Source of the DNA: a bacterium
GTDB lineage: Bacteria; Hinthialibacterota; Hinthialibacteria; Hinthialibacterales; Hinthialibacteraceae
Length of the DNA: 64,000 bases
Reading direction: 5' to 3'
NCBI GenBank assembly: GCA_963662285.2
Contig: CAXXMV010000001.1
Coordinates: 544,001 to 608,000, forward strand
A model generated the notes under the pieces. It was not told the DNA's origin. It did no database searches and was given only the letters and a program-made list of their open reading frames with translations. The position numbers were made by a program, and so were the translations under genes. This document shows, one piece after another, positions 3,001 to 63,698 of the stretch (position 1 is the first letter of the stretch; every line of letters begins with the position of its first letter).

Positions 3001-4807
3001 AAATCAAACCGCAGATCAGCGCCGTAGCGCCGCCGACCATGCCAAACGTCTTAAATGCCTTTTTCCATCTTTCGCTCACTCCAGGCATATAGGGCGAATA
3101 GAATTTGGGACGGATGCTTATCAGCGCGGTTATCCAACGGGCGCCTAGAACCATCATCACGGGCAGGATGGCGTCCATATAACGCGGGAATTTACTATGC
3201 ATGCTGCTGTAAATAATGAAACTTGGTATCACCCAGGCGCAAAGCAGCAAATCGGGACGCGAGCCATCCCGGAACAGTTGCGCAAAAGCAAAAATGCAGC
3301 CGCCTATCACTAAGAACGCCGTCACCCAATCCAGCGAGGGGTAGAACAGATTATCCAGCGAATAAATAACTGGCAGGGTATTGCGGTATTGTTGGGTAAA
3401 TACAATGGGGTGTTCGCCAGTAGCGTTATACTGGCTTTGCTCAGCGATGCTCTTGCCAAACTCTTTAGCGTCAAAATAGGCCATTGGTTCGGCGACCATG
3501 AACGCAACTAAACCAACAACGACAGCAATGCTCAGCCATACCCAGGGGCGGTAGATGCGCACCGCCGGCATAAACCAGCCGACCTGTCCGCCATGCCATC
3601 TTTTTCTAAGAATCAATAGATAAAGGCTGCCGAGAAAGAGTAGTATTTCGCCTACGGCGAAGAACCATTTATACGACCAGTAGAAATCCCTGAACGCGGC
3701 GAAGGTCACATCAACTGGTGGATTGTTGGACTTGGCGGCCATGAAGAAATGCGCCAGGAATACTGCTGTGTATAATAACCAGACCGAGTGAATCCAGCGC
3801 CCTACTTTACCCTGACGCTCATCGCCCAGCGTTGCCATAGCATGGGCGATCAACAGTATGCCCGGCAGGGTGATTCCGCTCCACTTGGTTCCCACTGCGA
3901 ATCCAGTGCAGATGGCGCCGAGAATATACCAGTAAAGTCTCGGCTTCTGACTGATTTTAAGGAAGCAATAGACCGCCGCAGTGGTCAGGAAACCCAGGAT
4001 TACGTCAGTAGTGGCGAAATGGCTGGTCTGTACATGCAGCATGGCGGCGGCCAGCATGGCCGCCGCGATAAGTCCGGTGACGCGGTTGTAGGCGTCGCGC
4101 CCGATCAGGTAGGCCAGCAGAACCGTCAAACCGCCTGCATAAGCTGTAACCGCGCGTCCGACTAATAGAATCGGTAATGATCCTTGATTATATTTCGACA
4201 AATCAACCGTCAGATTGGGCAGCACCGCCGCCAGCACCAATCCGGTAAATGGAATAAACAAACAGGGGAAAAAGAACATCAAGCGCTGTTCATCTTTATA
4301 CCAGGGAATAAAGCGCCCATCGATCTCGCGCAGGTCGCGCGACAGGCCTATGTACATGCGTAATCCCAAGATAAGTACAAAGGCCAGCAGTATGCCGCTC
4401 AGCCAATCGGGGAACGCCAGGAAATTCCAACCAGTTTCTGCGTTGAAATGTTGTTTCAGATAAATGTCATATAGAGCATAAACATGCAGGGGGAAGGTGC
4501 CATAATTATAGTTGCGGATTCTAAGACCCGGCGACCGCTCTCCTTTTTGGCTTTCATCAACCGTCAGGTTGCGCTGATAAAGTAATTGGGCCTGCTCTTT
4601 AACCGGGAGTTTTAACTCCTCCTCAGTTAATCCCTGGAAATTCAGGTCGTCATTGGCGCAAGATTGATAATGCCATTCGTCGGGATGTTGGGAACCTATG
4701 CCGTCTTTGAATCCCCAATCCATGCCATAGAAACGTAAATAAAGGGCGAGCGCGAATATCGCCAGCAGCGTAAGTGCAGATAAGATGCGTTTGACAGCTG
4801 AGTTCAT
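1..4807 (-). CDS. DUF2298 (YYY-motif) / GT-C (PMT-like) large multi-pass membrane glycosyltransferase, 3' end beyond window edge
   Basis: Not in the ORF track because no stop lies in the window. ATG at 4807 gives MNSAVKRILSALTLLAIFALALYLRFYGMDWGFKDGIGSQHPDEWHY. Around 2100-1925 it reads GGEKHMNMAFINAVYRAETFPPEDPWASGHSINYYYYGH, the DUF2298/Chlor_Arch_YYY signature. Frame was spot-checked, not read codon by codon. Confidence 0.85.
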   Translation of the reverse strand, partial: MNSAVKRILSALTLLAIFALALYLRFYGMDWGFKDGIGSQHPDEWHYQSCANDDLNFQGLTEEELKLPVKEQAQLLYQRNLTVDESQKGERSPGLRIRNYNYGTFPLHVYALYDIYLKQHFNAETGWNFLAFPDWLSGILLAFVLILGLRMYIGLSRDLREIDGRFIPWYKDEQRLMFFFPCLFIPFTGLVLAAVLPNLTVDLSKYNQGSLPILLVGRAVTAYAGGLTVLLAYLIGRDAYNRVTGLIAAAMLAAAMLHVQTSHFATTDVILGFLTTAAVYCFLKISQKPRLYWYILGAICTGFAVGTKWSGITLPGILLIAHAMATLGDERQGKVGRWIHSVWLLYTAVFLAHFFMAAKSNNPPVDVTFAAFRDFYWSYKWFFAVGEILLFLGSLYLLILRKRWHGGQVGWFMPAVRIYRPWVWLSIAVVVGLVAFMVAEPMAYFDAKEFGKSIAEQSQYNATGEHPIVFTQQYRNTLPVIYSLDNLFYPSLDWVTAFLVIGGCIFAFAQLFRDGSRPDLLLCAWVIPSFIIYSSMHSKFPRYMDAILPVMMVLGARWITALISIRPKFYSPYMPGVSERWKKAFKTFGMVGGATALICGLIYATSYVGIYNRPHTLGEAGQWVRGHMKHGALITKNNWDNGINIHIESKDEIGIHTDADQELRSPAERIRYLAMMLNKFDYIVFPSKRGYGTTLQNPDRFPVTNKFLRAFFAEQLGFKVAKVFTNPPRFLGYEFRVDDEDETARVYDHPKVIIFEKTQDFSQEQLRDLIQNPPDWVNRITDQEILNIRDGYPVFSTPPDYPVLQWLIFIFVLGWIAFFLLFPIAAFLPDRGYGISKIVGIALFAWISWFSASTGLMNLSYMQGVFILTGMTVLAGAIARRHKDDIIKFLKQKWILLIGLELVFLLVLAIFMGTRAYHPAAIGGEKHMNMAFINAVYRAETFPPEDPWASGHSINYYYYGHAAISIVGRFAGLPPEYLFNIGGATVSALSALAIFTLAYTLARSAIIALIAMYFGCFAGHVISYINFIKYDLIRNGNPEMAANVGFRECLNRFSDIGDKMWNAILYYIGRGTPEIEASFRELHYDEIFWKSSRIIPHTVANEFPAWTHLFQDMHAHQLVIPFTFAFMVLLYNYFAQPRETHRVGNTFGLTFFLGLLLGTVICTNTWDLPALGIALLLITAVKFYREYDMFGQPMVRSEWISPKCWHNYLRFPITQIVMILGFSVLLFIPFHTNFVSRVSSVGVMTEGNTLLPTYLGYLGHLLIPVCIAAILLAVLGKDGRITMRRTVIRAALFASCFMLSVALAIMITRKNLFGFPPASDPNFPFNYSIIGLFLPFLMILFLMMWRRKYSPEFVFTCLIGVLGLGLSLGIEIFYINEGMAPPSHRWNTVFKFNIQVWHYLSILAAISIFWIPDQIIRLNKYAGKWISRGFSARTQATVVGAFLLIPILFITLPFAILGPVLVTKASGGTHDARMPTPTLDAYAYLRHENYGAYSAVQWCNRFLPDSTRIVETAYRHGGNHARFSSYTGLPTIVGWPHHTRERLNHIAYIVNRRVNDMERIYTTQNPKEALNLLGKYQVEYLIFGEVERNTRRGDQNERMPLG

Positions 4808-55755: not shown

Positions 55756-56721
55756 ATGACTACCAATGAAGGCCAAGCAAAATCTGAAGTTAATCACGTT
55801 TTCGGGCCGGTTCCGTCACGCCGCTTAAAACGATCCCTGGGAATCGATCTGGTTCCTTATAAAACCTGTTCCTATGATTGCATCTATTGCCAGTTGGGCG
55901 TCACTACCGATAAAACTGTAACCCGGAAAGAATGGGTTTCCCTCGATTTGCTTTTAGAGCAGCTGCAACAGCGTTTGAGTGAGATTAGTACTCCACCTGA
56001 TTACATTACTTTGAGTGGATCAGGCGAGCCGACGCTTTATTCGCGGCTGGATGAGTTGATAGATGGGATTAAGAAGATAAGTTCGACGCCGATAGCACTG
56101 CTTACTAACGGCTCGTTGCTCTGGCAACCGGAGGTGCGTCAGCAGATACTAGATGTAGATTTAATTGTTCCTTCACTGGATATCGGAGACGAAAAGATGT
56201 TTCAAAATGTGAATCGTCCCCATGAATCAATTACATTTCCTAAAATGCTTGAGGGTTTGATAAAATTGCGGGAAGAATTCCATAACCAATATTGGTTGGA
56301 GGTTTTCCTGCTGGATGGTTACACTGCTCTACCAGCCGAAATCGATAAAATAATTGATTGCGTAAAGCAAATAAAACCCGACCGCGTGCAACTGAATACC
56401 GTCGAAAGACCTCCCGCTGAGGAATTCGCTTATGTGGTTCAGGCAAAGCATTTGCGGCAGATCGCCGGTTTGTTTGATCCCCCCGCAGAAGTTATCGCCG
56501 GATATCAAGGCGTCCCCGAAGAAGCATATTCCGGTCATCTGGATCAAGACATCATCACAATCCTAAAAAGGCGGCCATGCACTTTGAACGACATATCCAA
56601 TGTTTTAGGCGTACCGCATAACACCACGGTGAAATGTCTCTATCACCTTTCAAAAGAGAACAGAGTTGTTACTAAAAATATCAATGGACAAGTCTATTAT
56701 GATGATACGCCGGCGTCTTGA
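55756..56721 (+). CDS. Radical SAM protein (TYW1-like family) with C-terminal HTH
   Basis: VFGPVPSRRL..SLGID, CSYDCIYC, SGSGEPTL, LTNGSL. Confidence 0.9.
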   Translation: MTTNEGQAKSEVNHVFGPVPSRRLKRSLGIDLVPYKTCSYDCIYCQLGVTTDKTVTRKEWVSLDLLLEQLQQRLSEISTPPDYITLSGSGEPTLYSRLDELIDGIKKISSTPIALLTNGSLLWQPEVRQQILDVDLIVPSLDIGDEKMFQNVNRPHESITFPKMLEGLIKLREEFHNQYWLEVFLLDGYTALPAEIDKIIDCVKQIKPDRVQLNTVERPPAEEFAYVVQAKHLRQIAGLFDPPAEVIAGYQGVPEEAYSGHLDQDIITILKRRPCTLNDISNVLGVPHNTTVKCLYHLSKENRVVTKNINGQVYYDDTPAS

Positions 56722-57240
56722 TTATGCGCCAAGAAATTTATAAGAGACCAAGAAATCTACCGCCATCTTTTGAGGTCCAATAATAAAATCATTCTTCTGT
56801 AACAAACTTTCCAATATGTCGTTACATTTTTTCTTTGATATTGCGTTGCCAACATAAAGGTCTCGCAATACCATTGCGAGATTCCCAAAATCGATTTTGG
56901 CATTCCTTGAATTTATTGCTAAGAGTTTGTCTCCGGTAATGATCCTCAATTGATGATGGACGCCGCACGCAAATACTAAACTATCTATTCCTGCTAATTT
57001 TGGGCTTAATTTTGCTTTGACTAATATTTGCGATAGTTGTTTAGGGGAAGGTAGTTCCCTGATTTCTACAAATCCTCTTATTCTATCAGATGTTTCGGCC
57101 AACAAGTTATCTTCTGTCAGGCATTCTTCAATAGCATATATACCTTTAAAATACTTTTTGAAATCACCATGATCCACCAGAATGTGATCTAAGGTGATTA
57201 ATGAACAAGTATCAAAAAGAGTGTTATGCCACCATTTCAC
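56722..57240 (-). CDS. PIN-domain-like protein
   Basis: LFDTCSLI N-terminal Asp, IEEC, GIDS, ITGDKLL; overlaps the upstream XRE/ImmA gene by 17 nt. Confidence 0.65.
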   Translation of the reverse strand: MKWWHNTLFDTCSLITLDHILVDHGDFKKYFKGIYAIEECLTEDNLLAETSDRIRGFVEIRELPSPKQLSQILVKAKLSPKLAGIDSLVFACGVHHQLRIITGDKLLAINSRNAKIDFGNLAMVLRDLYVGNAISKKKCNDILESLLQKNDFIIGPQKMAVDFLVSYKFLGA

Positions 57241-58384
57241 TTTTATTATTAAGCCACCTTCCGGTCATTTCTTGGGCTTCATCAATTCTTATCTGAAACA
57301 TCTCTGCAACTTTAGACACGGAAATTTCTTCGTTGATGAAAGCAGCGTATATTAATCTCCCGAAACGATAAGATTTATTTAATGTACTAACTTGAATTGG
57401 CTCTGGCTCCAAGTTTTCCATTATAGTTTTAACTCGAATGCCTAGTTTGCGTTTAACTTCTACAATCAATGCCTTATACGTAATCGTGGTTAAACTTTCC
57501 TGCGTAAGACGCCTGAATAAACACCAAAAACTAACGCCAAAATAGCGTTTCAATAAAACTAAAGCATTAAAAACAGGAAGCCGATTAAGATGCTCCTGCT
57601 GCCAAATGCGATAGAGTTCATTTCGAGGAACCAGGAAATATCCTGCAAATATATCGGCTTCTTTTTCATAATCACGGTCATTTTCTGTATCATCCGGCTT
57701 ATTAGTAAATAGGTGTGGATGCAATACCAAATGACCCAATTCATGCGCGACGCTAAAGATGGTTCTTTCCACTGCACGGTCACGATCACGAATCATCATT
57801 AATGCCATATCATCATATAACACACTCAATGCATCAATTCCACTTTGATTCGATTTAAAGAAAAGCGGTCTGATTCCAATATTTTCAAGAAATTTAGATA
57901 TATTTTGGTAGTTAATACCTTCTCCACCGCATTTTTCTTTTACTTCGCAAGCCGCATTTTCTAACCATCTATCAGGATTCTCCTTTGCTTCTGGAGACAA
58001 ATCGCATTGAGGTATTTTGATTTGAATCTTCGAGTTTCTTATTTCCTCAATCTCAATATAAGAATTCAAATATTTTCTCGCCATTGCGATAATCTTGGGA
58101 TCGCTTTTTAATTTCTTATGTGCACGGAAAGCAAATTTAGGCGCCTGTTCCGATTGCTTCTCGGAAAACATATCCATAATGCTGCAACCGAGAGTATTAA
58201 CAATTTTCACCAAATCTTTACTGTTAGGTTCAGTCCTTCCATTCTCGTAATTAACAATAGTATTCCGGTTTACTCCAATAGCTCGCGCTAATTGGATTTG
58301 CGTTAAACCAATACTCTCTCTCTGGAATTTAATTCTCCTACTAATATCTATATTTGTATCGTCCAATTCCTCCGTGATTCCCAT
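57224..58384 (-). CDS. XRE-family HTH fused to ImmA/IrrE (peptidase M78, COG2856) domain
   Basis: RESIGLTQIQLARAIGVNRNTIVNYENG HTH; FSVAHELGHLVLH HExxH; EKEADIFAGYFLVP. GGAG RBS before ATG 58384 (ORF track 58438). Confidence 0.9.
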   Translation of the reverse strand: MGITEELDDTNIDISRRIKFQRESIGLTQIQLARAIGVNRNTIVNYENGRTEPNSKDLVKIVNTLGCSIMDMFSEKQSEQAPKFAFRAHKKLKSDPKIIAMARKYLNSYIEIEEIRNSKIQIKIPQCDLSPEAKENPDRWLENAACEVKEKCGGEGINYQNISKFLENIGIRPLFFKSNQSGIDALSVLYDDMALMMIRDRDRAVERTIFSVAHELGHLVLHPHLFTNKPDDTENDRDYEKEADIFAGYFLVPRNELYRIWQQEHLNRLPVFNALVLLKRYFGVSFWCLFRRLTQESLTTITYKALIVEVKRKLGIRVKTIMENLEPEPIQVSTLNKSYRFGRLIYAAFINEEISVSKVAEMFQIRIDEAQEMTGRWLNNKSEMVA

Positions 58385-58450
58385 GATCCTACTCCGTTTT
58401 CTGACAATCGTCCCGCCATATTCTCCCTTATTATGCATAATACTTTGTTC

Positions 58451-58478
58451 ATTTTACAGACAATTAGGTTTGAGTCAA
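58451..58478 (-). promoter_or_regulatory. sigma70 promoter of the XRE/ImmA-PIN operon
   Basis: Minus strand TTGACT-16 nt-TAAAAT. Confidence 0.6.
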
Positions 58479-58523
58479 TACTATATGCACAAATATTTGT
58501 GCATATAGTATTGACTCAAACCT
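58466..58523. repeat. Perfect 58-bp spacerless palindrome
   Basis: AGGTTTGAGTCAATACTATATGCACAAAT|ATTTGTGCATATAGTATTGACTCAAACCT. Confidence 0.9.
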
Positions 58524-58656
58524 CCTACTTGATTCTGGATTTTTCGAATAGCGAATCAGAATGCTTTTATCAAGAACCATTCTATTTCCCTATATTCCCT
58601 CTCATTCCCCAAAAAAAACCTATTGTTTTTGTCATATAGGCTAGTATAATTAATAC

Positions 58657-58855
58657 GTAGAAACATAAAACAAGGGGCCGCTCGAAGTACCATGCCCCTA
58701 TTCGGGTCTAAGAGATATTCGATCTCTTGACCAAGGTTCAAGCCTCGGAGCGCAATGTTTCGGGGAAGAGAAAGGATGGCGTGAATGATAGAAGATACGC
58801 CGCCTACAAAGTAAGAAGGGGTCATCAACTATGCACGATGGCCCCTTCGCTTTTT
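58657..58855 (+). ncRNA. Putative ~200-nt structured ncRNA, tandem copy 1
   Basis: Five hairpins ending in a terminator + U tract; upstream TTGTTT-16-TATAAT (58623-58650). Confidence 0.65.
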
Positions 58856-59034
58856 AAATAGTAATTTTTTTATTCAAAAAACCACCCTAATTCACCTATC
58901 TCTTTATCAATCAATATAATGCAGGCATATCGCAGGTATGAGATTATTTTCCTCCAGACATTTGTACTATTTATTTCCCCATATTTCCAAAAAAACCCTA
59001 TTGCATTTACCATACAGGCTGGTAAAATATATAT

Positions 59035-59230
59035 GTAGAAACAAAAACGGGGCCACTCGCAGTACAATGCCCCTATTCGGGTCTAAGAGATATTTAATCT
59101 CTAGACCATGGTTTAAGCCCCGAAGCGCAATGTTTCGGGGAAGAGAAAGGATGGCGTGAATGATAGAAGATACGCCACCAAAAATGTAAGAAGGGGTCAT
59201 CAACTATGCACGATGACCCCTTCGCATTTT
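59035..59230 (+). ncRNA. Putative ~200-nt structured ncRNA, tandem copy 2
   Basis: Homologous to copy 1 with structure-preserving substitutions; upstream TTGCAT-16-(TGn)TAAAAT (59001-59028). Confidence 0.65.
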
Positions 59231-59269
59231 AAACAACCATTGTTCTCCTATATTCCCATATCACCTGCT

Positions 59270-60784
59270 TTACCAAATCGAAGCCATATCCCATATATCA
59301 ACTGACTTGCACATGGCTGATCCACCATTAGCGGTTAGATATATCACGCTGGATTGATTCAATGCGGGAATTACAGTCGTACAACAGGCGCGATCATTAA
59401 CATATAACTCAACAACCGCTTTATCGATGAATAATTGAAATTTCACCTGCGTCTCGCCATCAAGCAACTCAAACGGACCCTGGTTTTTCTCTATGCCGAC
59501 TGTTTTATTCTTCAGGTCGAACAAAATGGGAACGCTTGCCGCTTTCTCATCAATGGTTTTTATTACCAATCCAAAAGAATCGGCTGAACCAGGTTCAAAG
59601 ACAGCCGTAATCTCTTTAGCGCATTGCTCGATTGATTCAATATATATAGGCGTAGAAGCAATTTTCCTGGCGCTGATTATGCGGTGATTCCTATGCAGTT
59701 CTTTCAATTCCGGCGCCGGTTTCATGCCCAGGCTGCCGTCCTTGAGCATGGTCATGATACGCGGCAGAGTCATGGCGCCATTCCAGCCCTTGCCTTTGAT
59801 ATCGCGAATCCAGCCCCACATAATGCGCCGCCCCTGAGCATCTTCCAGGCAATTGGGCGCATAAAAATTGTTGGAATAATCCAGCAAAGCGCGATTCCCG
59901 GAAGTGAAAGTAAAATCTTCATTGAACGATCCGGTATGATACATCACCCGGCTGTGCGGTGAATAAATTAGAGTGTACTTGTCGCCCAACTTGAAGAAAT
60001 TAGGGCATTCCCAATTTTTCTCATTATGCTCCGCTTTGGATTGATAGAGGATATTGAGATATTCCCAATCAACCAGGTTCTTGGATCGGTAAACAAAAGC
60101 GGCGCCCCGTCCATCTTTGGGGTGTCCGCCTAGAACCACGAACCAGTCTTTACCTTTCTTAAACACAAATGGATCGCGCCAGTCCAATACCTTCATATCA
60201 CCATGCAGTTTCTCTGTCATAACCGGATTAGCGGGATGCTTATCCCAGGTTAACATGTCATCATGGCTGATAGCCGCCCACTGCACCGCCCCGTCACCCG
60301 CAGGAGTTTTTGGACCAATACTGGTATAGAGCATGGTCGGTACTCCTTTATCATCAATTACGCAGCAACCCGAGAAGCAATGATCCTCGCCTTTATCTTT
60401 CGAAGGCGCCAACGCTATCGGCAGATGCCTCCAATGCGCCAGGTCCTTGCTCACCATATGCCCCCAATGCATGTGTCCCCAATTCTCGCCATAAGGATTA
60501 TGCTGATAGAACATGTGATATTCGCCCTTGTAATAAATCGGGCCATTAGGATCATTGTTCCATAAAGCTGGAGGCTGCAAATGATAAACCAGCCGCGTCG
60601 CATCTCCTTCGACGGCCTTCTTCGCCAGGGCTACAGCGGCGTTAGCTTTGGCTATCTCTCTTTGGTGAATTTCATTATGCGCTTTGATTTCAGATTGATC
60701 ATCAGAAGCGGACGAAATTACGCTAAAACCAAATATAAACAGAAAAACGGATAAACCCAATCTTAAAAATCGCTGCATTTCCAT
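59270..60784 (-). CDS. Glycoside hydrolase family 32 (beta-fructofuranosidase-like), exported
   Basis: WNNDPNG, FYQHNP, WGH, FSGC, RDP, WECP motifs. Confidence 0.92.
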   Translation of the reverse strand: MEMQRFLRLGLSVFLFIFGFSVISSASDDQSEIKAHNEIHQREIAKANAAVALAKKAVEGDATRLVYHLQPPALWNNDPNGPIYYKGEYHMFYQHNPYGENWGHMHWGHMVSKDLAHWRHLPIALAPSKDKGEDHCFSGCCVIDDKGVPTMLYTSIGPKTPAGDGAVQWAAISHDDMLTWDKHPANPVMTEKLHGDMKVLDWRDPFVFKKGKDWFVVLGGHPKDGRGAAFVYRSKNLVDWEYLNILYQSKAEHNEKNWECPNFFKLGDKYTLIYSPHSRVMYHTGSFNEDFTFTSGNRALLDYSNNFYAPNCLEDAQGRRIMWGWIRDIKGKGWNGAMTLPRIMTMLKDGSLGMKPAPELKELHRNHRIISARKIASTPIYIESIEQCAKEITAVFEPGSADSFGLVIKTIDEKAASVPILFDLKNKTVGIEKNQGPFELLDGETQVKFQLFIDKAVVELYVNDRACCTTVIPALNQSSVIYLTANGGSAMCKSVDIWDMASIW

Positions 60785-60886
60785 TAATAATCTCCAATTT
60801 CCATAAATAATTCCTCTCTATTACATGTAACAATTTAACATATATCATAATTAATTTCAGCTGCTTTGAAACGAATAAATGCAGAC

Positions 60887-60922
60887 AAAAAAATTGCGCC
60901 TGGCTTCTGGCGACCAGGCGCA
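60887..60922 (-). terminator. Intrinsic terminator upstream of the GH32 gene
   Basis: Minus strand TGCGCCTGG-loop-CCAGGCGCA followed by ATTTTTTT. Confidence 0.6.
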
Positions 60923-61346
60923 TTCAGGGGGAATTGGATGAAGATGTAAGAAAAAATGGCTCAATAGCCATAGTCTTACCGATATTGGTTTAGTTGATTT
61001 TCTACAATTAAACACCTTCTCTACGTAAAACAAATTATCCAGTATTTAGTTAAATCAACATATTAGAATGATAATGTGTTTCTATTTGTTGTATATCAGG
61101 GATTTTCTAATTCTTTGTAGGGCTTTCCCTGAAAAACAACAATTAGAGCGATTTGTATCGCATCATGAGGATAAATCGAACAACAAAACATCCACCATCA
61201 CAACATAAGATACATTGACTTTTTCAGCGCCTTATGGGATAAATACATATACTTTTGTAATAATCGGTCTGTTGAGATGCCTATTACAAGCGCTCTCAAT
61301 ACGCATACTGTTTTGTTAGAACAATATAACAATAAAGGACAATATA

Positions 61347-62168
61347 ATGATGAAGAAGAATCTACAGAAAAAACTTACCGTAATATTAACGCTTGCATTA
61401 TGCTTTATGTCCGTATCCATTTTCTCAGCGGGCTATGCTTTTGGTGATGCCGCAGAAGCCTTAATCGATCAATCGTCTGCTTCATCTAAACAAAATGACC
61501 TGCCCAAGCGCGTGATTGTTCCTAAAATAAAGGACAACATCAAGATAGACGGCGTTTTAGACGAAAGCGCATGGCAAAAAGCGGCCACTCTGGCGCCATT
61601 CAGTTTGAACGATGGCAGCGGCCCGGCGCGTGAAGATACCAAGGTTCTTATCGGATACAATGATGAATCCCTATATCTGGCCTGGGTCTGTAAAGACGCC
61701 GATATTTTGGCCACCTACAGCAAAAGAGACGATAAATTGTGGGAAGAGGAAGTAGCCGAATTCTTCGTAACCCCCGATAAATTAACTGAATACTTTGAAC
61801 TTCAATGGAATCCGCTAGGAACCATTTTCGACGCCATCATTCACAATAATTTGAAAGAAAACGGGCTGTCCAAGGGAATCAAAGGCGATTGGGATTGGAC
61901 CGCCAACGGGATGCAAGCGGTAGTCAAAGTTGATGGCACAGTGCAAAACAGCCAGGATACAGACCAACAATGGCTGGTAGAAGTGAAAATCCCCTTCAAA
62001 TCGCTGGAATGTTCAGCGCCAAAATCCGGCGATGTCTGGCGGGCAAATTTCTACCGCTACAGCCGCACAACAGGTAAAGAAGACGCGCTCTACTATAGCT
62101 GGTCGCCTACCAGGCTGCAATCATTCCACGAACCCAGCCGTTTCGGATATCTCCAATTCGGGCAATAA
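61347..62168 (+). CDS. Carbohydrate-binding family 9-like protein, exported
   Basis: IKIDGVLDESAW, LWEEEVAEFF, YFELQWNPLG, EVKIPF, WRANFYR, WSP, FHEPSRFG. Confidence 0.82.
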   Translation: MMKKNLQKKLTVILTLALCFMSVSIFSAGYAFGDAAEALIDQSSASSKQNDLPKRVIVPKIKDNIKIDGVLDESAWQKAATLAPFSLNDGSGPAREDTKVLIGYNDESLYLAWVCKDADILATYSKRDDKLWEEEVAEFFVTPDKLTEYFELQWNPLGTIFDAIIHNNLKENGLSKGIKGDWDWTANGMQAVVKVDGTVQNSQDTDQQWLVEVKIPFKSLECSAPKSGDVWRANFYRYSRTTGKEDALYYSWSPTRLQSFHEPSRFGYLQFGQ

Positions 62169-62203: not shown

Positions 62204-63698
62204 TGTACAGACCGGGTAGATGGGTAACACATGTTCGGGGACATGGGTTACAGTTTTTTATCAAAACCGGGATTTATCCCAGGTTATTGTTTGAGTTTTT
62301 TTTTAGGCATCTAGAGATGCTCAGGATAATTGGTTGGCTTAGAGGGAGGAGGTGAATATTTCACCTCCTGCATTATCCCTCGCACCTCGGATCGGCTATC
62401 CCTGGCGGGTTGCACTCCTGCAGCGCCCGCTTCCGTTTCGCCCAACCAATTTCTATTGTGACGCCTTTTTCTGGATTGCCAAGTTATCTTCTTTGATTTC
62501 ATTCAAACGCAGATCGAGCGTCTTGATTTTTTGTCGGCAAAAATATACGTCCATCATCCCATCGGTCATAGCGGGTTTCAAGGCAACCGGGCATCCTACC
62601 AGGGCGCGGCTCACCCGGTAATCTTCACCACGGTACGCCACCCGACCTCCTTGTTGCACCTTCCTGATAATGCTGCCCGGCGCGTACTCGATATCCGGCA
62701 AACTTCCCGGATAAACAAAAGGACTGGACGTATAATGGTTAGCCGGGACATCCATATCCAGGGCTTCGTGAGGACGCTCAAAATTGTATTCATAACGCCA
62801 CTCATCAAACCGCCTTTGGCAATATTCCAAATCCACAAACGATTCCCTTATCAGCAATTCTTGCTTAAAGGTCCGGTGAAATCGCTCGACCTTGCCTTGG
62901 GTTTGCGGATGGTAGGGGCGACCGTGATACACGCGAATACCCAATCGTATCAGCCATATTGTCAATCTGGTGTATTCGCAGGTTTTGCATCCTCCCCACG
63001 GACTTCCGTTATCCATCAACATCGCCCGAGGCATACCATACATCCTGAACACGCTTTCCAGGGAGTCTTGCACGGTTTCCCTTTGCTGATTGGCGCACGA
63101 AAATAATCCGGGAACAAAGCGCGTGCAATCATCCAGAATGCTGAGCGGATAACAGCGTGCTTTGAGCGTGGGAAAATCTCCTTTGAAATCCATTTGCCAC
63201 AATTCGTTGGGCGTATCTTTTTCAAAACGCTTATAGGCTTTGTGCTTGTGACTTTCCTTTTCATCCAGCAATCCCAGTCGGCGTAACACGGCAGTAATAG
63301 TGCTGGCGCTAGGAACATTTTCGTATCCCAATTGAATCAGACGAGAGCGAATTTTGCGTCCTCCCCATCCTTTTTCGCGATTTTCTGTAATGGCTTGCTC
63401 GATAGACTTATCTGTTTGATGAGGGCAAGTATTGGGTTTTTTGGAACGGTCTTGGAGATTTTCGACTCCTCCTTCTTTGTACCGTTTGATCCATTTGTAA
63501 CCCGTCTTACGGCTGATATCAAACCGTTTACATAATTGGCTGATGTTGCTTTCTTCTTGCTGGCTCAACAATACGAATTCTTTTCTCAGAGACATAAGGT
63601 CCACCTCGTTCCAGGGCATATTCTTCGCCTCCTTTCAAGGCTAGAATACACTCAGGGAATGTGTTACCTATGTCCCCGAACACCTGTTACCCATGTCC
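62204..63698 (-). mobile_element. IS481-family element, copy 2 (left IR interrupted)
   Basis: Near-identical to 38792-40298 in reverse orientation; the terminal 12 bp of the left end are replaced by another IS. Confidence 0.9.
62453..63619 (-). CDS. IS481-family transposase
   Basis: Protein identical to 38883..40049. Confidence 0.95.
   Translation of the reverse strand: MPWNEVDLMSLRKEFVLLSQQEESNISQLCKRFDISRKTGYKWIKRYKEGGVENLQDRSKKPNTCPHQTDKSIEQAITENREKGWGGRKIRSRLIQLGYENVPSASTITAVLRRLGLLDEKESHKHKAYKRFEKDTPNELWQMDFKGDFPTLKARCYPLSILDDCTRFVPGLFSCANQQRETVQDSLESVFRMYGMPRAMLMDNGSPWGGCKTCEYTRLTIWLIRLGIRVYHGRPYHPQTQGKVERFHRTFKQELLIRESFVDLEYCQRRFDEWRYEYNFERPHEALDMDVPANHYTSSPFVYPGSLPDIEYAPGSIIRKVQQGGRVAYRGEDYRVSRALVGCPVALKPAMTDGMMDVYFCRQKIKTLDLRLNEIKEDNLAIQKKASQ

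Follow-up and report, generated by a model that had tools for sequence, protein, structure and literature searches.

The AT-rich region at about 56600-59199 of the window (the whole stretch of 64,000 nts that was analysed) is best explained, with a probability of roughly 0.8, as two unrelated features lying side by side: a toxin-antitoxin-type module, composed of an XRE-HTH/M78 fusion gene and a PIN-like nuclease gene, and a pair of small RNA genes. The GC content of this region is 0.345-0.398, versus 0.42-0.47 upstream and 0.42-0.50 downstream, in agreement with the AT-rich cassette described in the initial annotation of this DNA. The protein genes are located on the minus strand and the RNA units on the plus strand, in a divergent orientation, with 220 nts between them in one AT-rich stretch. 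Because synteny at the radical-SAM gene is not kept in the 8 relatives compared, the insertion boundaries of the cassette are not definable. Within the two-feature explanation, the XRE-M78/PIN module is one that has spread horizontally.

An XRE-M78 fusion gene and a PIN-like nuclease gene

The first gene of the minus-strand operon has a reading frame open to 58438 (57224-58438), in which the second ATG, at 58384, is the likely start, chosen on the basis of the starts of homologues and their SD sequences. The resulting gene (57224..58384) encodes a protein of 386 aa, a predicted repressor/antitoxin that matches HTH_3 (E 3.8e-15) and Peptidase_M78 (E 1.9e-14) in Pfam and carries the HExxH motif of ImmA/IrrE-type peptidases as HELGH. 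Its 3′ end overlaps the start of the PIN gene by 17 nts, as expected from the HTH-HExxH fusion overlapping a PIN-like gene that had been noticed earlier. In the PADLOC search that had been proposed as a check, the fusion protein matches RmrA, the RosmerTA antitoxin, at E 4.1e-42, with further matches to CapP (E 1.5e-16) and CapH (E 8.8e-05). The NCBIfam spr1629 repressor/antitoxin family also matches it, at E 8e-26, below the cut-off.

The second gene (56722..57240, minus strand, GTG start at 57240) encodes a 172-aa predicted toxin/effector. It has no Pfam PIN match at E<=10, the curated cut-off of PF01850 not being reached, and no PADLOC family matches it at E<=1, RmrT included. A word-based homologue search returned the self-match alone, and a profile search of PDB sequences gave nothing significant, with VapC 7by2 at E 1. 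An exhaustive homologue search retrieved 67 representatives (at 50% identity), and Pfam PIN is weakly matched by 20 of 28 relatives of the protein, with a best E of 3.1e-07; no relatives of the family were found in the viral contigs searched. AF2 modelling from the single sequence was unusable (pLDDT 40.5), and an alignment-based model was used instead, which reached a pLDDT of 95.9. This model adopts a PIN fold (VIA Z 11.0, rmsd 2.8, 117 aligned to 1v8o_C), all 50 entries listed being PIN-type, and Foldseek likewise retrieved PIN proteins (E 3e-3, prob 1.00). Among the relatives, the acidic active-site residues are D10 (24/24), E38 (18/28), D86 (26/28) and D104 (25/28), and T102 is conserved in 27/28 members. 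Family members, modelled fold and conserved residues together confirm the predicted identity of the protein as a PIN-like nuclease, and the earlier "PIN-like" label is thereby borne out for a protein with no Pfam match of its own. The family is small and has no Pfam family of its own. In the Atlas, its nearest named neighbours are DUF3368/COG2405-type clusters, a lead only.

The predicted operator of the operon

A consensus scan identified a promoter-like site, TTGACT-16-TAAAAT, upstream of the XRE-M78/PIN operon (58451..58478, minus strand, 10/12 matches). Its -35 box is overlapped by a perfect palindrome of 58 nts (58466-58523, no strand), hence the earlier description of a perfect palindrome over the promoter is accurate. 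The palindrome core, TGCACAAATATTTGTGCA at 58486-58503, has the form TGCACAA-N4-TTGTGCA. Among 11 homologous loci with upstream DNA, the core motif is present in 4, at 80-320 nts upstream of the XRE-M78 start, and missing from 7. The palindrome occurs once in the 7.3-Mb genome, and its core is found nowhere else in it, including the RNA promoters and the other three RNA copies. Because the core recurs upstream of homologues and is found a single time in the genome, the palindrome is most likely the operator of the XRE-M78/PIN module, as far as can be predicted.

Conservation of the pair and its modelled complex

Related pair loci were searched with 8 close rows of the 28-row PIN-family alignment. 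In all 15 loci found, XRE-M78 lies directly upstream of the PIN-family gene; it is full length in 11 of them, cut by the locus end in 3 and a fragment in 1. The complex model of XRE-M78 with the PIN-like protein scored 0.93, versus 0.19 for the best control. At the same mark, 116 of 157 solved complexes are recovered versus 2 of 215 mismatched pairs; the score is a model confidence and, as VapBC-like complexes have been solved, a pass may partly reflect likeness to VapBC. At least 92% of the contacts are shared between runs, and the partner pLDDT is at least 92. The modelled interface includes PIN residues 10-12, 38-40, 80-88 and 103-107 and XRE-M78 residues 352-379, which places the C-terminal helices of XRE-M78 over the PIN active site.

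Defence genes are found within 4 kb of the pair in 5 of the 15 loci. In one relative (G009), the pair is inside a DISARM locus, between DrmMI and DrmA, with the end of the PIN gene overlapping the DrmA start. The RmrA match, the 15/15 pairing, the modelled complex, the nearby defence genes and the class known from the literature together support reading XRE-M78 and PIN as a conserved pair of known type, either toxin-antitoxin or defence, in line with what had been proposed for XRE-COG2856 with PIN.

Comparison with known systems

The nearest class is the "three-component" TA class of HTH-DUF955 (COG2856) with a PIN-like partner, as presented in Makarova 2009 (PMC2701414) and Matelska 2017 (PMC5499597). 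The fused Xre-COG2856 gene upstream of a PIN-like gene, with HExxH retained, corresponds exactly to the architecture predicted there, and co-transcription is indicated here by the 17-nt overlap and the constant pairing. The difference resides in the small PIN-like family outside Pfam. By its gene content and order, the module is placed in this known HTH-M78 + PIN-like class, which is itself largely predicted.

RosmerTA (RmrT/RmrA) is a phage-defence TA system according to the descriptions given in bioRxiv 10.1101/2022.05.11.491447 and PMC10440598. The two systems share an RmrA-type antitoxin in which an N-terminal HTH precedes a Zn-peptidase of the ImmA type. They also share a two-gene operon organization, a toxin partner that varies and a frequent defence context. 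However, the partner here is a PIN-like nuclease without an RmrT match, and the antitoxin comes first in the operon. Since RmrT toxins are diverse, the missing RmrT match lowers the case for formal RosmerTA membership and not the likeness in mechanism. With respect to the neutralisation that defines RosmerTA, the complex model would support binding only.

The module also resembles VapBC in having a PIN toxin with an acidic quartet, an antitoxin C-terminus predicted over the active site and an N-terminal DNA-binding domain predicted to act on a palindromic operator. Whereas VapBC antitoxins are small AbrB/RHH/PHD proteins, the module has a 386-aa XRE-M78 peptidase fusion in this role.

Proposed mechanism of the module

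An XRE-M78 dimer probably binds the predicted palindromic operator, which covers the -35 box of its own promoter, and would thereby repress the bicistronic operon. The C-terminal helices of XRE-M78, together with part of its HTH region, would cover the PIN catalytic pocket and neutralise the PIN-like RNase. By analogy with ImmA/IrrE, the M78 peptidase may be activated by phage infection, DNA damage or a similar trigger; inactivation of the repressor/antitoxin by the peptidase would follow and release the PIN nuclease. The freed nuclease is presumed to have RNase activity and would cut cellular RNA, causing growth to stop, and the module may in this way have an anti-phage effect.

A rather unlikely alternative, and still the strongest, is that XRE-M78 acts chiefly on transcription, as a switch that responds to a signal in the manner of ImmR/ImmA or CapH/CapP, instead of as a binding antitoxin, controlling whatever lies downstream: PIN only in the window, and possibly the DISARM genes in G009. 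Such a switch was hypothesized for pairs of this kind in PMC5499597 and PMC2701414, and it is in line with the CapP and CapH matches and with the conserved predicted operator over the promoter. CapH/CapP-type regulators consist of an HTH repressor and an M78 peptidase encoded upstream of a defence operon that they regulate. In G009 the pair runs into DrmA, but no defence operon lies downstream of it within the window. Against a switch alone, the modelled direct contact covers the PIN catalytic residues, and the PIN partner is constant in 15/15 loci whereas the genes further downstream vary. Both mechanisms could operate together.

Two structured small RNA genes

On the plus strand, two direct repeats consist of a 202-nt core that is 89% identical and a 61-nt upstream part that is 80% identical, with a spacing of 375 nts. 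Each repeat is a promoter-RNA-terminator unit, so that RNA-A and RNA-B appear as tandem "sibling" sRNA genes of approximately 200 nts, each preceded by a promoter and closed by an intrinsic terminator of its own. The promoter region of copy A (58609..58656) comprises an A-tract, CTATTG... and TATAAT at 58645-58650; it was read directly from the sequence, as the strict -35 rule of the consensus scan is not passed, and copy B, the third copy of the genome and relatives all retain it. The sRNA of copy A (58657..58858, about 200 nts) folds into hairpins P1-P4 followed by a terminator. Copy B has its promoter region at 58987..59034, with TAAAAT at 59023-59028, and its sRNA at 59035..59232 (about 198 nts). 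The folds are far better than those of shuffled sequences, with z-scores of -4.55 for copy A and -7.89 for copy B and 0 of 200 shuffles as good for either copy, and the two divergent RNAs of the initial annotation are thus upheld.

The two copies differ at 20 positions; the 4 that lie in the P3, P4 and terminator stems are all exchanges between G.U and Watson-Crick pairs. The R1 model of the RNA family scores 133.3 bits on copy A and 140.3 bits on copy B. In the family alignment, 93.8% of the cells are paired, versus 36-51% in slid controls, and double changes are found in 23 of 29 pairs, counts made on an alignment that was fitted to the model and hence biased towards the structure. The stems are kept by compensatory and G.U changes across 27 family members, the G.U pairs are consistent with the plus strand alone, and the sequence flanks past the promoters are not conserved. 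The conserved 3′ module is composed of a hairpin, a purine-rich GAAAGG linker and a GGCGU/ACGCC hairpin, followed by the terminator, the stem of which is a near-invariant GAAGGAG/CUCCUUC helix resembling a Shine-Dalgarno/anti-Shine-Dalgarno pairing.

Searches of Rfam 15 gave no match to either RNA at E<=1 in the window, nor any RNA match at E<=1 in 12 homologous loci. The sole Rfam matches are spurious miRNA matches to the palindrome.

Multicopy trans-acting sRNAs of the RsaE/RoxS type carry C/U-rich anti-SD elements. The RNAs described here resemble them as stand-alone promoter-terminator genes that are paralogous and tandem, with a CUCCUUC complementary to ribosome-binding sites, and differ in that the CU-rich element is paired in the terminator stem instead of being displayed in a loop. 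They are most likely trans-acting riboregulators or protein-binding RNAs, independent of the neighbouring proteins. Of 35 genomes of the phylum, all have CsrA and 33 have Hfq, a near-universal presence that cannot tell one RNA mechanism from another.

The small RNAs and the protein pair occur separately

The genome contains 5 copies of the RNA family, namely the two in the window, a third on a different contig and a further two that are more distant. Among the 19 other genomes of the same bacterial family, 15 have it, and it was found in none of 15 genomes from other families of the phylum. It is a structured, multi-copy RNA family, restricted to this bacterial family and apparently undescribed.

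Outside the window, 26 RNA copies occur at 25 places in 16 genomes, and neither XRE-M78 nor PIN is found within 1.5 kb on each side at any of the 25. Conversely, the RNA was sought at the 15 pair loci and found at none; the best match, of 17.8 bits, lies upstream of the XRE gene in locus L048 and is an artefact formed by the operator palindrome and a G-rich terminator. Separate contigs carry the pair and the RNAs in G009, and tandem RNA copies occur without the pair in two other genomes (G010 and G013).

The initial annotation had suggested that the RNAs could be the antitoxin, the substrate or a regulated output of the XRE-M78/PIN module, which would then form one protein-plus-RNA system. This is now very improbable. 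It draws on the close, divergent arrangement in a shared AT-rich stretch, on the fact that PIN nucleases cut RNA, and on a duplex of RNA-A with the region of the XRE start, at -37.8 kcal/mol in a single unrefined calculation. However, RNA-B reaches -26.3 kcal/mol at the XRE start, compared with a window mean of -27.0 (sd 6.8), and the PIN start ranks 21st among the 51 window genes in RNA-mRNA duplexes, a calculation that ignores accessibility and reveals no consistent complementarity to the module. Furthermore, each RNA gene has a separate promoter and terminator, about 100 nts separate the end of the palindrome from the -35 region of RNA-A, and the operator core is missing at the other RNA copies. 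An antitoxin is also already predicted over the PIN active site, in the form of XRE-M78. The co-occurrence check that had been proposed across genomes was run and showed none in either direction, one of the two outcomes that had been named as speaking against a link, and the reading as one system is largely refuted by these data.

ToxI-type antitoxins of type III TA systems are short tandem repeats that lie immediately 5′ of the toxin gene, on its strand, and are processed by the toxin. The likeness here is limited to a repeated RNA near a nuclease gene, whereas the repeats are 375-nt units that constitute full genes, divergent from the nuclease and widespread without it. Their genomic distribution indicates that copies A and B are independent genes outside the protein module and that the adjacency is coincidental, as the initial annotation had itself allowed.

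The lack of co-occurrence elsewhere may be compatible with a link specific to the lineage of this one genome. Such a co-option, in which the acquired PIN would take the abundant sRNA family next to it as a preferred substrate or decoy, possibly via the invariant GAAGGAG/CUCCUUC helix, or in which the palindrome, unusually long at 58 bp, would insulate or couple RNA-A transcription, with a local circuit of protein and RNA in either case, is given an equally slight chance. Least probable of all is that the RNAs are minus-strand small protein genes or a repeat element present in copies. On the minus strand, reading frames of 90 and 78 aa do run across the two copies, and the terminator hairpin also scans as a minus-strand terminator. 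However, the products of the two frames show many non-conservative differences and unlike C-termini, and the stems kept across the family, the conserved plus-strand promoters and the unconserved flanks also speak against this reading.

Significance

The separation of the two features removes a false lead, since tandem RNAs by a nuclease gene are insufficient grounds for assigning a type III-like or hybrid system. A modest, new by-product of the analysis is the RNA family, which is structured, multi-copy, outside Rfam and from an uncultivated phylum. Because the XRE-M78/PIN pair is compact and strictly conserved, with a clear predicted operator and a confidently predicted neutralisation interface, it would offer a convenient model for how ImmA-type peptidase antitoxins release their toxins.

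Organization of the AT-rich cassette

The features described in the initial annotation (an AT-rich cassette, overlapping genes, a palindrome and divergent RNAs) are all present in the window. The cassette covers positions ~56600-59199, where GC content is 0.345-0.398 versus 0.42-0.50 on both flanks. On the minus strand, an ORF at 57224-58438 encodes the XRE-M78 protein, a fusion of HTH_3 (E 3.8e-15) and Peptidase_M78 (E 1.9e-14; HELGH present). The last 17 nt of this ORF are shared with the PIN-like gene (56722-57240, minus strand, 172 aa), which begins with GTG. Judged against eleven homologues, the starts of which have good Shine-Dalgarno sequences, translation of XRE-M78 probably begins at the second ATG, at 58384, giving a 386-aa protein.

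Repeat analysis of the window revealed a perfect 58-nt palindrome (58466-58523) that overlaps the -35 box of TTGACT-16-TAAAAT, a promoter-like site on the minus strand. Of 11 homologous loci with upstream DNA, 4 also carry the core, TGCACAA-N4-TTGTGCA, located 80-320 nt before XRE-M78 begins. The 7.3-Mb genome has a single copy of the palindrome and a single copy of the core, and ~100 nt separate the end of the palindrome from the -35 region of the first RNA gene, RNA-A. Together, these observations suggest that the palindrome is best read as a putative operator by which the XRE-M78/PIN operon would be autoregulated.

The RNA genes, RNA-A and RNA-B, are plus-strand direct repeats spaced by 375 nt, which match over a 202-nt core at 89% identity and, upstream of it, over 61 nt at 80%. 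Both copies contain an A-tract, a -35/-10 region, a ~200-nt structured RNA and a hairpin with a T-run after it. Also in this region are the genes of a secreted GH32 fructosidase (59270-60784, minus strand) and a CBM9-domain protein (61347-62168, plus strand), separated by an AT-rich intergenic region (60800-61350, GC 0.31-0.38). An IS481-type transposase gene (rve, HTH_32, LZ_Tnp_IS481; 62453-63619, minus strand) is located 3 kb from the cassette and may have a bearing on the arrival of the AT-rich stretch.

The RNAs and the gene pair as probable independent neighbours

The proposal that XRE-M78, PIN and the tandem RNAs form one protein-plus-RNA system was examined by co-occurrence, and the RNA part was not supported. 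Outside the window, the sRNA occurs at 25 places (26 copies), and none of them has the pair: no ORF of 50 aa or more lying up to 1.5 kb away matched the PIN profile or either protein, and a Pfam search of 42 flanking proteins revealed no HTH_3, M78 or PIN domain, and one HicB-like protein. Conversely, the RNA was found in 0 of 15 pair loci with filters off; the best match (17.8 bits) corresponds to operator plus terminator and was rejected. In the related genome G009, the pair and two RNA copies occupy three separate contigs, and a search of 9.5 kb around the pair gave 11.6 bits at best. Tandem same-strand copies are also present in two other relatives, G010 (L030:1276-1382 and 1716-1825) and G013 (L025:995-1102 and 1501-1610), hence the tandem layout is a habit of the sRNA family; these pairs adjoin unrelated genes, e.g., CTP synthase. 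Such separate occurrence of RNAs and protein pair is the pattern that the initial annotation had named, together with a lack of interaction, as counting against the link. Module and RNAs are thus, with a probability of about 0.8, two independent neighbours, with a small remaining probability of a physical or genetic RNA-protein interaction in this one genome. That the sRNA acts as a leader of the downstream gene is ruled out, since this gene is convergent in 12 of 26 cases.

A structured sRNA family

The predicted RNAs are real and constitute an independent family, as judged from folding and comparative analysis. RNA-A and RNA-B fold much better than shuffled sequences (z -4.55 and -7.89), and all four differences between them in the P3, P4 and terminator stems are switches between G.U and Watson-Crick pairs. 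Among 27 sense-strand members, 93.8% of cells are paired (36-51% in slid controls) and both sides vary in 23 of the 29 pairs; the alignment used was fitted to the covariance model, which favours the structure. The terminator stem opens with seven base pairs, GAAGGAG/CUCCUUC, that are almost invariant; CUCCUUC was counted in 21 members and GAAAGG in 23, out of 27. In most genera, the RNA is longer (~250 nt) and has additional conserved hairpins on its 5′ side, namely a GGGCGA...UCGCCC stem and a GGUU-GUGA-AACC stem.

A third copy (81% identity) in the window's genome lies on a different contig, flanked by an unrelated 222-aa gene and the gene of an FG-GAP protein, and a covariance model built on the conserved 3′ part detected two more distant ones, bringing the number to five (further copies at G000:C6:86897-87138, minus; G000:C1:315723-315849, minus; G000:C3:132482-132576, plus). 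With the covariance model, the family (further loci L015-L038) was detected at E ≤ 0.01 in 15 of the 19 remaining genomes of the same bacterial family, a count that falls to 12 at E ≤ 0.001, and in 0 of 15 genomes of the phylum's other families. No Rfam 15 family was matched at E ≤ 1 by RNA-A, RNA-B or the 12 homologous loci, and Rfam and a limited literature search by phylum name yielded no description of the family. Minus-strand ORFs run through both copies (58556-58828, 90 aa; 58967-59203, 78 aa); the many non-conservative differences between their products mark them as probable shadow ORFs of the RNA genes.

A conserved XRE-M78/PIN module

In a scan of one genome per species, 15 loci encode the PIN family (labelled Planctomycetota, Sumerlaeota, Kuenenia and Omnitrophota), and in 15 of 15 an XRE-M78 homologue lies directly upstream: 11 are full length (E 1e-108 to 1e-121), another three run off the end of their locus and one is a fragment. 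One locus looks identical to that of G009, so those two are not independent. Among the 35 genomes of the window's phylum, the PIN family was found, besides the window's genome, only in G009 and as one weak match in G008. By sequence comparison, the two genes are a conserved two-gene module.

Defence genes detected by PADLOC (E ≤ 1e-10) lie within 4 kb in 5 of 15 pair loci, and include DISARM, a Pycsar cyclase with E2, Lamassu, PDC-M05A and a type I restriction enzyme. In G009, the pair is within a DISARM locus, between DrmMI and DrmA. In this locus (L043; G009:C134:5000-14500), DrmMI is upstream of the pair and the DrmA start is inside the PIN gene end; upstream of the pair, a 1.3-kb spacer contains small TA-like ORFs as well as a REP-like hairpin repeat in many copies, including about five tandem units at 4166-4410 (47-nt spacing).

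The 172-aa protein alone matched nothing in Pfam, NCBIfam or PADLOC, and a word-based homologue search returned only itself. An exhaustive HMMER search collected 67 representatives at E ≤ 0.001 (33 at E ≤ 1e-10), mostly of ~170 aa, and 20 of 28 aligned members show weak Pfam PIN matches (best E 3.1e-07). With the family alignment, the AlphaFold model reached a pLDDT of 95.9, versus 40.5 without it. The top Foldseek matches were the PIN proteins PAE2754, Nob1 and VapC (E 3e-3, probability 1.00); structural re-alignment gave Z 11.0 to 1v8o (rmsd 2.8, 117 residues) and Z 10.8 to VapC4, all 50 entries listed being PIN-type. The acidic site residues are kept (D10 in 24/24, E38 in 18/28, D86 in 26/28, D104 in 25/28), as is T102 (27/28). 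The predicted fold, family matches and conserved residues identify the protein as a PIN-like nuclease.

The XRE-M78 protein is a predicted RmrA-like repressor/antitoxin, matching the PADLOC RmrA models (E 4.1e-42; CapP and CapH more weakly) and, below the model's cut-off, the NCBIfam spr1629 repressor/antitoxin model. Complex prediction with alignments for both chains scored 0.93, versus 0.19 for the best of three controls; 116 of 157 solved complexes attain that mark, as do 2 of 215 mismatched pairs. Three runs agreed in at least 92% of contacts (partner pLDDT at least 92), and residues 352-379 of XRE-M78 and part of its HTH region confidently contact the catalytic pocket of PIN, formed by residues 10-12, 38-40, 80-88 and 103-107. 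VapB-type antitoxins silence VapC in the same manner, and part of the score may reflect this likeness to VapBC, because such complexes are solved. The prediction supports, short of proof, binding of PIN by XRE-M78.

Relation to known systems

Reading the pair as a toxin-antitoxin or defence module was supported and sharpened. One study predicts a three-component TA class in which fused Xre-COG2856 genes are in operons with PIN or RelE toxins (PMC2701414), and a second describes this class with several PIN-like families (PMC5499597). RosmerTA is defined by a Zn-peptidase antitoxin and a toxin whose function is unknown (bioRxiv 10.1101/2022.05.11.491447); RmrA, which the window's XRE-M78 matches, is its antitoxin in PADLOC. 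The ImmA domain was also presented, in another report, as a hub antitoxin with PIN-like domains among its partners (PMC10440598). These systems place the module in an already known kind, as a further example of the described Xre-COG2856 plus PIN-like class.
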